The notes under the pieces were generated by a model that did no database searches, was not told where the DNA came from, and worked only from the letters and a program-made list of their open reading frames with translations. Source: an uncultured Pseudomonadota bacterium (GTDB lineage: Bacteria > Babelota > Babeliae > Babelales > CAIQNR01). From it: a stretch of 64,000 bases of DNA. Made by a program: the position numbers and the translations under genes. Positions 20,310 through 21,395 of the stretch are shown one piece after another (the stretch's first letter is position 1; each line of letters opens with the position of its first letter). The stretch spans positions 104,156-168,155 of the forward strand of contig CAZRXF010000001.1 of assembly GCA_964604015.1 (NCBI GenBank). The letters are read 5' to 3'.

Positions 20310-21395
20310 TTACTGTCCGACATTGGTATTTCGACACATCGGGCATGACCGCGGCAACTCCTTAGCACGCTGTCCGGCAAACCAGCGATCCAAACATGAC
20401 GAGCCGTGGAACGTGTGGTTGCAAGGAAGCGTGACGGCGCCACTCGAGATAGGTTCAAGACAGACGGCGCACTCGGAGTCACAGCACACAGGCGCAGGAG
20501 CCGGAGCAAGTTTAGCAGCACGCTTCATAGCAACGAGCGCTGCGGTGGCTTCTTGTGATTCGCTGTCGATGGCTTTCTTGTTAGTGATGTCGCATAGGAT
20601 TTTGCGGTCTGAGGCGTCCTCCCTCGCCTTCAACCCACTCTTATCAGCTATCTCCGGATCTCCCCCAGCATTTAAAAGTAACGTAAGTGCCGTCAGATGT
20701 TTTTCGCGATCGGTTTTTGGTCCGCATGCCTTATGAAATGGAGTTGCCATCGTGCGGCGGTCTTGCAAATTGGGATTGGCTCGTCGACCAAGAATCTCTT
20801 TTAAAATTGTGAGTGTTTCATCATCAAAGTCGCTGCGATCAAGCAAAGGATGGAGACACGACTCCCCATCGGCGTTTGTTGTGTTAACAAACTGACGCCC
20901 CCGACGACGTCTATCTGCTTCCCTCAAGATCTTTGTTATCGTATCAGATGAACATTTTTGATTTCTGCAGGCTGCATGTAACGCGGTATCTCCTGCGCGG
21001 TGAAGTGGATTATTAACTTCCGTAACAACAATGAATGGATCAGCATTTTTGCCAAGAAGTAAGTCAGCAATCTCATTAAGACCTTCGGCGCATGCTGCAT
21101 ACAGTCCGGTCCTTCCTTGTGGATCTTGACCGTCGACGTTCATCCCTTTTCCTACCAGGAATCTAACCATATCAGTGTTGTGTTGGAGTACCGGGGTTGC
21201 AAGTGCAACTGTGTTTATGTTCGCCCCTGCTTTTAATGCCCTCTCAGCTGCCGGAATATTACCGGCACATACCGCTGCATCAAGCGCAAGGTCATACGTA
21301 ATCTGTTTTGCGGTACGTTCTAAGGTTGCCAGTTCACTAGCTTGTATTCCAAAAGATACACAGACACAGAGAGAAAAAAGGGACAAAATTTTCAT
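20310..21395 (-). CDS. Signal peptide + ankyrin-repeat protein with a C-terminal RING-H2-like zinc finger
   Basis: I moved the start to 21395 (MKILSLFSLCVCVSFGIQA). There are several ANK-type repeats (e.g. GRTGLYAACAEGLNEIADLLLGKNADP, GDTALHAACRN, DGESCLHPLL, TPFHKACG). The C-terminus is CAVC-x12-CNHTFH-x3-C-x16-CPMC, including the CxHxFHxxxCLxxW context typical of RING-H2 fingers. Confidence 0.75.
   Translation of the reverse strand: MKILSLFSLCVCVSFGIQASELATLERTAKQITYDLALDAAVCAGNIPAAERALKAGANINTVALATPVLQHNTDMVRFLVGKGMNVDGQDPQGRTGLYAACAEGLNEIADLLLGKNADPFIVVTEVNNPLHRAGDTALHAACRNQKCSSDTITKILREADRRRRGRQFVNTTNADGESCLHPLLDRSDFDDETLTILKEILGRRANPNLQDRRTMATPFHKACGPKTDREKHLTALTLLLNAGGDPEIADKSGLKAREDASDRKILCDITNKKAIDSESQEATAALVAMKRAAKLAPAPAPVCCDSECAVCLEPISSGAVTLPCNHTFHGSSCLDRWFAGQRAKELPRSCPMCRNTNVGQ

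Follow-up and report, generated by a model that had tools for sequence, protein, structure and literature searches.

This work concerns a gene located on the minus strand (20310..21395) of a 64,000-nucleotide stretch of DNA from an uncultured bacterium, the whole of which is called here the window. The gene encodes a protein of 361 amino acids (aa), the ankyrin-RING protein, that combines a putative Sec-type N-terminal signal sequence, an ankyrin-repeat solenoid and a C-terminal RING-H2 finger. Judging from its sequence and from structural models, this protein is probably a secreted RING-type E3 ubiquitin ligase effector that would act inside a eukaryotic host, probably a protist, and it is a credible candidate for a host-directed RING E3 effector. 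The architecture of the protein, the predicted fold of its RING, its conservation, its genomic context and the selection acting on it are described below, followed by a proposal for its export route, its entry into the host, its ligase activity and its target.

The RING-H2 finger

The finger occupies residues 309-355 (20331..20471, minus strand), as delimited from the zf-RING_2 match, the structural model, the Foldseek matches and the invariant ligands. Pfam models identified zf-RING_2 (PF13639) with 38.4 bits for a gathering score of 27.3 (E 1.5e-9, residues 318-365 of the 371-aa form of the protein, see below) and zf-C3HC4 also above its cut-off (27.0 vs 21); zf-rbx1, zf-ANAPC11 and other RING models match below their cut-offs. 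The pattern reads C309-x2-C312-x12-C325-x-H327-x2-H330-x3-C334-x16-C351-x2-C354, followed by R355 (361-aa numbering), i.e. a ligand order C-C-C-H-H-C-C-C in which all spacings are canonical except that between ligands 5 and 6. The eight zinc ligands are invariant in the orthologues sharing 75% and 47% identity with the window protein. The original prediction, made from the DNA letters only, had described a C-terminal RING-H2-like finger: its pattern had been transcribed exactly and its ligands are confirmed, and the Pfam scan that it proposed as a check gave significant matches to both the zf-RING_2 and Ank families.

When the last 69 residues were compared by phmmer with 1.84 billion representative proteins, 1002 matches were obtained (E <= 0.001), and 74 matched RING domains were aligned with the query to give a 75-sequence alignment. 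The corresponding profile scores 75 bits on the ankyrin-RING open reading frame (ORF) and, among solved structures, matches RING-H2 E3 ligases at 1e-15 to 1e-16 (ARK2C/RNF165, Arkadia, HRD1/synoviolin, RNF126, RNF13, RLIM, RNF38 and gp78/AMFR). A word-index homologue search with the 69-aa RING alone gave no match. At the sequence level, the domain is a genuine eukaryote-type RING-H2 and not a chance resemblance, since it scores above a curated Pfam threshold, its profile matches solved ligases and its ligands are invariant in orthologues. A U-box identity was rejected, all eight zinc ligands being present and zf-RING_UBOX scoring 18.7 for a cut-off of 25.2.

The key positions of RING E3 ligases are a hydrophobic residue in the first CxxC, a Trp after ligand 6, a Pro after ligand 7 and an Arg/Lys linchpin after ligand 8. 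In the window protein, we take V311, W338 and P352 to be the E2-contact candidates and R355 to be the linchpin, by reference to established RING-E2~ubiquitin complexes. W338 (four residues past ligand 6), P352 and R355 are invariant across the three orthologue clusters and position 311 is always hydrophobic (Val in the window, Ile in L001, an orthologous locus from another sample). Of 202 related RINGs, 165 have an Arg or a Lys directly after their last Cys.

The only deviation pointed out by the original prediction, H-x3-C, is real and rare. Among the 202 RINGs found in the best 150 database matches, the spacing between ligands 5 and 6 is x2 in 199, x3 in two and apparently x4 in one, this last case being an artefact of the regular expression. 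Both the window (HGSSC) and L001 (HSSSC) have H-x3-C, whereas the orthologue P0170 (47% identity) has a canonical H-x2-C (HRDC). Since P0170 keeps x2, the extra residue is, as far as these sequences indicate, a derived one-codon insertion in the sub-lineage of the window. Zinc binding appears plausible despite this insertion, because it falls within the opening turn of the RING helix, where residues at i+3 and i+4 point in the same direction.

Predicted structure of the protein

The full-length AlphaFold2 model, obtained with a six-sequence family alignment, shows a predicted local distance difference test (pLDDT) of 80-95 from residue ~30 to residue ~290. The last 69 residues, modelled with the 75-sequence alignment, reach a mean pLDDT of 82 (88-94 in the core) and are predicted to form two short strands and a helix that begins directly after H330. 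A Foldseek search with this RING model returned RING-domain structures for all of the top 50 PDB matches listed. The best ones are RNF165, RNF38, HRD1 and TRIM25 (root-mean-square deviation, rmsd, of 1.6-2.2 A and target-normalised template modelling score, TM, up to 0.76), including RNF165 bound to UbcH5b~Ub (5ulh; E 1e-3, target TM 0.76, rmsd 2.1 A); gp78 is also among the matches. The fold prediction that had been suggested for the C-terminus thus yields a modelled RING region that matches RING E3 ligases. The absence of any RING hidden Markov model match together with the absence of a RING fold, set beforehand as the outcome that would speak against the finger, was looked for and did not arise.

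Upstream, the ankyrin-repeat solenoid covers residues ~34-263 (20607..21296, minus strand), as delimited from Pfam, AlphaFold2 and Foldseek. Ank_2 (3e-15) and Ank (2e-14) match it, Ank_3, Ank_4 and Ank_5 being also above their cut-offs. Foldseek aligned it with gankyrin and with DARPins over ~231-240 columns (target TM 0.74-0.77, E 1e-9 to 1e-11). Because the model superposes on the seven-repeat gankyrin, it indicates ~6-7 repeats and not about five as had been predicted from the letters. The presence of this scaffold is conserved. The solenoid and the RING are joined by a linker (residues 264-304; 20484..20606, minus strand) that contains, according to the secondary structure of the model, a beta hairpin, a helix and an Ala/Pro-rich stretch; its identity with L001 is only 66%.

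Start codon, signal sequence and expression signals

The ORF list gives a minus-strand ORF whose stop codon is located at 20310-20312 and whose first ATG, at 21425, would generate a protein of 371 aa. In L001, the reading frame opens at the ATG equivalent to 21395. ATG 21395 is likelier to be the start than ATG 21425 in view of this comparison, because L001 conserves the hydrophobic N-terminus that follows this ATG (window MKILSLFSLCVCVSFGIQA followed by SE, L001 MIFLSLFSLCLCVSFQMRA followed by SE) but not the ten codons upstream of it. The upper boundary originally given to the gene, 21395, is therefore the better supported start, and the 361-aa coding sequence retained here combines the ORF list, the L001 start and the Pfam Ank and zf-RING_2 matches. 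A GGAG Shine-Dalgarno-like motif (21407..21410, minus strand) lies within a TGGAGC sequence that is invariant in the four aligned loci (4/4). Furthermore, the gene has its own promoter (TTGACA-17 nt-TATAAT; 21484..21512, minus strand), identical to the sigma-70 consensus at 12 of 12 positions and located ~90 nt upstream of the start; both hexamers are kept in L001. A protein from another sample, P0001 (L009 209-1306), is otherwise identical to the window protein but begins with MGKVMKIL where the window reads ...GAWKVMKIL; this points either to a small difference in the 5' end from one sample to another or to another choice of start.

By inspection, residues 1-19 (MKILSLFSLCVCVSFGIQA; 21339..21395, minus strand) form a putative Sec-type signal sequence with a cleavage predicted after I-Q-A. 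It can be divided into MK, ILSLFSLCVCVSFGI and QA, the latter preceding S, i.e. a Lys in the n-region, a hydrophobic core of 15 residues and small residues at -3 and -1, a pattern that fits a cleavable signal or an anchor. The signal-like character of the N-terminus is found in L001 and in P0170, though the residues themselves differ. This conservation across orthologues agrees with the N-terminal export signal that had been proposed initially.

Genomic context, orthologues and evolutionary rate

The gene is flanked by genes encoding a Peptidase_S8 subtilase, ruvC, dnaB, rplI and ileS on one side and by recF, dnaN, a Xer-like recombinase gene and proS on the other side. L010 and L011 share the order dnaN-recF-[ankyrin-RING]-subtilase-...-ruvC-dnaB-L9-...-ileS, of which the part dnaN-recF-[ankyrin-RING] is seen in L001; these three loci originate from other samples. 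G+C content is uniform (0.39-0.47), the gene matching its surroundings. The subtilase gene (18153..20183, minus strand; Pfam Peptidase_S8), whose product has a hydrophobic N-terminus, is located directly downstream. Since a scan found no terminator-like site between the two genes, their co-transcription is possible; L010 and L011 show the same pairing, and the subtilase may be a secreted protease co-expressed with the ankyrin-RING protein.

Only three clusters at 90% represent the full-length family among 5.8 billion clustered sequences (that of the window itself, P0002 with 75% identity and P0022/P0170 with 47%), and no full-length eukaryotic homologue was found in this search. One relative carries its orthologue on a 1.05-Mb contig. 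A protein-pattern scan of the GTDB species genomes gave no relative, a result that carries little weight because the peptide patterns used are too specific to catch orthologues with 47% identity. Searches by tblastn with the whole protein and with the RING revealed no RING relative and no full-length match in 72,556 plasmids, nor any similarity to the plasmid protein of Cardinium (see below), the inclusion of that plasmid in this set not being established. The IleRS encoded in the window shares 84% identity with those of two metagenome-assembled genomes, 74-75% with two more and 58% with that of a 'Candidatus Dependentiae' Vermiphilaceae genome. From this comparison, the organism likely belongs to Dependentiae (TM6) or to a close group, and it is probably a small-genome bacterium infecting protists.

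The ankyrin-RING protein diverges much more than the products of surrounding genes. Between the window and L010, identity reaches 95% for DnaB, 93% for DnaN, 93% for L9 and 89% for ProRS, compared to 54% for the subtilase and 42% for the ankyrin-RING protein. Between the window and L001, the ratio of nonsynonymous to synonymous substitution rates (dN/dS) is 0.18 for the whole ankyrin-RING gene and 0.08 for its RING only, compared to 0.017 for DnaN and 0.059 for RecF. The protein is under purifying selection, which is strongest in the RING, yet it evolves ~10 times faster than its neighbours. Fast change under constraint is the usual signature of host-interaction proteins, and the pattern read from these sequences would be typical of such an interaction.

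Comparison with known RING proteins and origin of the RING

The RING-H2 E3 ligases Arkadia/RNF165, RNF38, HRD1 and gp78 share with the window protein the C3H2C3 order, the CxHxFH...CLxxW...CPxCR arrangement, the residues for E2 contact and the linchpin, and also the fold as predicted; the CxHxFH...CLxxW context had initially been read as characteristic of eukaryotic RING-H2 ligases. Compared to them, the window protein has H-x3-C instead of H-x2-C and a 16-residue second loop (WFxxQxxKELPxSCPxCR); moreover, it is bacterial, begins with a bacterial signal sequence and is fused to ankyrin repeats. Plant XB3/XBAT and animal MIB-type ligases have, like the window protein, ankyrin repeats N-terminal to a C-terminal RING. 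However, the match to RING_XB3-XBAT31 is weak and below threshold (17.7 vs 50 bits).

Among bacterial proteins, LubX, GobX, RavN, NleG and AvrPtoB are RING-class E3 mimics that use host E2s. They are known as zinc-free RING-like or U-box effectors, in which the fold forms although the eight zinc ligands are missing, and reach the host by type III or type IV secretion, whereas the window protein keeps the eight ligands, remains below the zf-RING_UBOX threshold and has a Sec signal. SneRING (SNE_A12920) from Simkania negevensis is an active RING E3 with UbcH5b and UBE2T (PMC12591485). It is also a zinc RING protein of an obligate intracellular bacterium, amoeba-associated and chlamydia-like. However, its RING is N-terminal, with atypical ligands (NxxC) and a Ser replacing the hydrophobic E2 contact, and it has no ankyrin repeats, whereas the RING of the window protein is C-terminal, canonical save one spacing and intact at its E2-contact residues. 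In Cardinium, the plasmid-borne ankyrin and RING protein CAHE_p0026 was proposed to be an E3 mimic (PMC5698495). It resembles the window protein by its two domains, its intracellular bacterial origin and the proposed mimicry, but it belongs to Bacteroidota and is carried by a plasmid, whereas the window is chromosomal and comes from a probable Dependentiae. Lastly, Babela massiliensis (Dependentiae) encodes a RING finger protein, an F-box protein and secreted ubiquitin hydrolases and has type II secretion as its sole secretion system (PMC4378268). Its RING finger protein, likened here by description only, comes from probably the same phylum, with the same inferred interference with ubiquitin. 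True RINGs are uncommon in bacteria, as the original prediction stated, but they are not new, given these precedents in Babela massiliensis, Cardinium and Simkania.

After the orthologues, the best single-domain matches of the RING are metagenomic proteins (48-51 bits, ~45-55% identity). Several of them are short, with an N-terminal RING followed by IQ motifs, and share the 16-residue second loop WFxxQxxK[DE]LPxSCPxCR. One of these RING-IQ proteins is encoded by a gene-dense contig of family-less genes that also carries an MLLE-domain gene and looks viral. Furthermore, viral contigs, including giant-virus bins, encode RINGs with 34-47% identity. The domain being of the eukaryotic RING-H2 type, a protist or giant-virus source is plausible, 50 residues being too few to decide between the two.

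Related designs were found on two other bacterial contigs. The contig of P0025 carries, beside gidA, lgt, dnaG and rpoD, three RING genes encoding an 856-aa protein with two RING-plus-ankyrin units, a 340-aa protein with a RING and ankyrin repeats, and a 163-aa RING protein. P0060 (L012 917-2362; 481 aa) combines a signal sequence with ankyrin-like repeats, a RING and a tail rich in lysine and is encoded by a contig that also carries genes for an endonuclease III and a Xer-like recombinase. Since these contigs encode secreted-looking RING or ankyrin-RING proteins, they suggest that the ankyrin-RING combination is a recurrent bacterial effector design.

Proposed mode of action

In the mechanism that we propose, the gene would be transcribed from its own strong sigma-70 promoter and the unfolded pre-protein would cross the inner membrane by Sec owing to its N-terminal signal. 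Type II secretion would be its most plausible way out of the cell, outer-membrane vesicles being the other one. TM6 genomes share conserved components of type II secretion (PMC4776705). Chromulinavorax encodes 98 ankyrin proteins, 78% of which have signal peptides, and vesicles are visible at an early stage of its infection (PMC6561590). In the reducing and zinc-containing cytosol of the host, the RING would fold as a two-zinc cross-brace, bind a ubiquitin-charged host E2 through V311, W338 and P352 and activate it through the linchpin R355. The ankyrin solenoid would hold a host protein, which would then be ubiquitinated.

Several observations weigh against such a secreted, host-acting ligase. 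The full-length AlphaFold2 model left the RING unfolded (pLDDT 24-56); the RING folded only with a deep alignment of RING domains, which biases the model towards the fold of the family. Its spacing between ligands 5 and 6 departs from the near-universal x2. Furthermore, a Sec signal leads to the periplasm only, which leaves the outer membrane and any host vacuole membrane still to be crossed, and a cysteine-rich zinc domain has to survive its passage through the periplasm. The assignment to Dependentiae relies on the 58% IleRS similarity.

The main alternative is a catalytically dead RING that would bind a host E2 or another RING without catalysis, as an E2 sponge, an inhibitor or an adaptor recruiting a host ligase, the insertion between ligands 5 and 6 being the cause of the lost activity. 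The rarity of H-x3-C (2/202), its derived state (the 47%-identical orthologue retains x2) and the fact that many eukaryotic RINGs are inactive alone are in its favour. However, the protein retains R355 as linchpin as well as W338, P352 and the hydrophobic V311 of the first dyad, and the conservation of these linchpin and contact residues would be unexpected once catalysis is gone; the dN/dS of the RING is 0.08, and residues i and i+4 of the helix would still lie on the same side, leaving zinc binding plausible. We therefore consider a dead RING unlikely. A role in the bacterial envelope appears somewhat less probable still. The hydrophobic N-terminus would then be an uncleaved anchor or a periplasmic signal and the partners would be bacterial, e.g. 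the adjacent subtilase. Indeed, a Sec signal alone proves only export through the inner membrane, and the gene adjoins that of a signal-bearing S8 protease, in L010 and L011 too, and is possibly co-transcribed with it. By contrast, the periplasm offers no known partner to a RING-H2 of the eukaryotic type whose E2-contact residues are intact; zinc-cysteine fingers are poorly suited to an oxidising compartment, the neighbouring ORFs that were scanned include no E2-like gene, and fast divergence combined with a conserved catalytic module fits host interaction.

Bacterial ubiquitin-like conjugation systems exist (mentioned in PMC12591485; see also the Prok-RING families of Pfam), and the statement of the original prediction that bacteria lack a ubiquitin system was too strong. 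The membership of the window protein in such a conjugation system, or in a defence system with a prokaryotic RING, is nevertheless very improbable. The window ORFs scanned, which cover most of those of at least 150 aa, include no member of an E1, E2, ubiquitin-like or Prok-RING family; Pfam gave no Prok-RING match for the protein itself, PADLOC returned only generic ankyrin and subtilase matches, and the closest relatives of the RING, in structure and in sequence, are eukaryotic RING-H2 E3s. Since none of the window ORFs scanned encodes an E1, an E2 or a ubiquitin-like protein, host targeting is the better reading. As the domain combination is typical of eukaryotes, a eukaryotic gene misjoined to bacterial sequence, through contamination or a chimeric assembly, was also considered. 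It is hardly conceivable and was excluded: the gene occupies the same position between recF and the subtilase gene in assemblies from four other samples (L001, L009, L010 and L011), has no introns, is preceded by a consensus promoter for sigma-70 and by the GGAG motif, begins with a signal sequence of bacterial type, and matches the G+C content of its surroundings. A secreted E3 ligase effector acting in the host thus remains the probable function of the ankyrin-RING protein.

Other features of the window

A second RING-type protein (308 aa; 31485-32411, plus strand) is encoded 10 kb from the ankyrin-RING gene. A signal or membrane segment is present at its N-terminus, in addition to Cys/His-rich repeats, and its C-terminal RING-CH (CQIC...CRC-x8-H-x2-C...CPLC) matches RINGv with 21.6 bits, exactly at the cut-off. 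Its gene is syntenic with that of a 394-aa RING protein of L010 (40% identity), which adjoins a MazG-like gene and proS.

A candidate small RNA element of ~190 nt (21534-21750, minus strand), detected by its conservation and structure, lies between recF and the ankyrin-RING promoter and has the appearance of an unannotated small RNA gene. It carries its own promoter (TTGACA-17 nt-TACATT at 21750-21722) and ends with a strong terminator (13-bp stem at 21571-21542, then T8). It is ~95% identical to its counterpart in L001, compared to 84% for the whole intergenic alignment, and is more conserved than the synonymous sites of the flanking genes (pS 0.30). In L010, ~65 nt at its 5' end (promoter and start of the RNA) are nearly identical; in L010 and L011, its 3' third is identical save one base in the terminal T-run. 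Its minimum free energy is -62.4 kcal/mol (z = -4.0), and three sequences preserve its closing helix, with a few changes on one side only and three on both sides. Rfam gave no match at E <= 1 on the window or on the element, and ARAGORN found no tRNA or tmRNA. The element includes an invariant and single-stranded ACUCUCCUUUUUU that could pair with Shine-Dalgarno sequences.

Family scans also revealed two adjacent paralogues of ~520 aa with DUF5122 beta-propeller repeats (47219-50378, minus strand) and three tandem EamA transporter genes (34431-37221, minus strand), the latter being consistent with a host-dependent lifestyle. A very long ORF (at least 2157 aa; 57525-63998, minus strand), close to the end of the window, matches none of the Pfam families at E <= 0.001. 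Many ORFs of 150-540 aa, including 25693-28847 (minus strand), have no Pfam or NCBIfam match; the same scan left 501-1193, 2620-4301, 9454-11076, 12712-13800, 16883-18220 and 51239-54693 family-less. Secreted-looking proteins are also encoded in the window. The L010 ORF located at the same position as the 362-aa ORF 12712-13800 shows essentially no resemblance to it, whereas the flanking genes are 93-95% identical.

Biological significance

The ankyrin-RING proteins constitute a new, small and lineage-specific family, whose architecture and underlying idea had already been published for intracellular bacteria. A wider scenario, which we regard as rather doubtful, is that this lineage, and perhaps Dependentiae generally, would have an undescribed and fast-evolving repertoire of zinc RING E3s exported by Sec and type II secretion and not injected. 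This repertoire would include the ankyrin-RING protein and the RING-CH protein, encoded 10 kb apart, together with the multi-RING and ankyrin-RING proteins of other bacterial contigs, and the H-x3-C insertion would retune the choice of the host E2. If true, a zinc finger that crosses the periplasm yet works in the host would represent an unusual delivery problem.

Few true zinc-binding RINGs from bacteria have been studied, and one experimentally characterised example was published in 2025. With its near canonical RING, its short and soluble-looking sequence and a natural pair of orthologues differing by x3 and x2, the ankyrin-RING protein would be a convenient test case. It would address the effect of one added residue between RING ligands 5 and 6, the way in which a Sec-exported zinc finger arrives and acts in the host cell, and whether Dependentiae, which are widespread and barely cultured protist parasites, manipulate host ubiquitination. 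Overall, while leaving current understanding unchanged, this finding would extend a known strategy to a poorly studied lineage.

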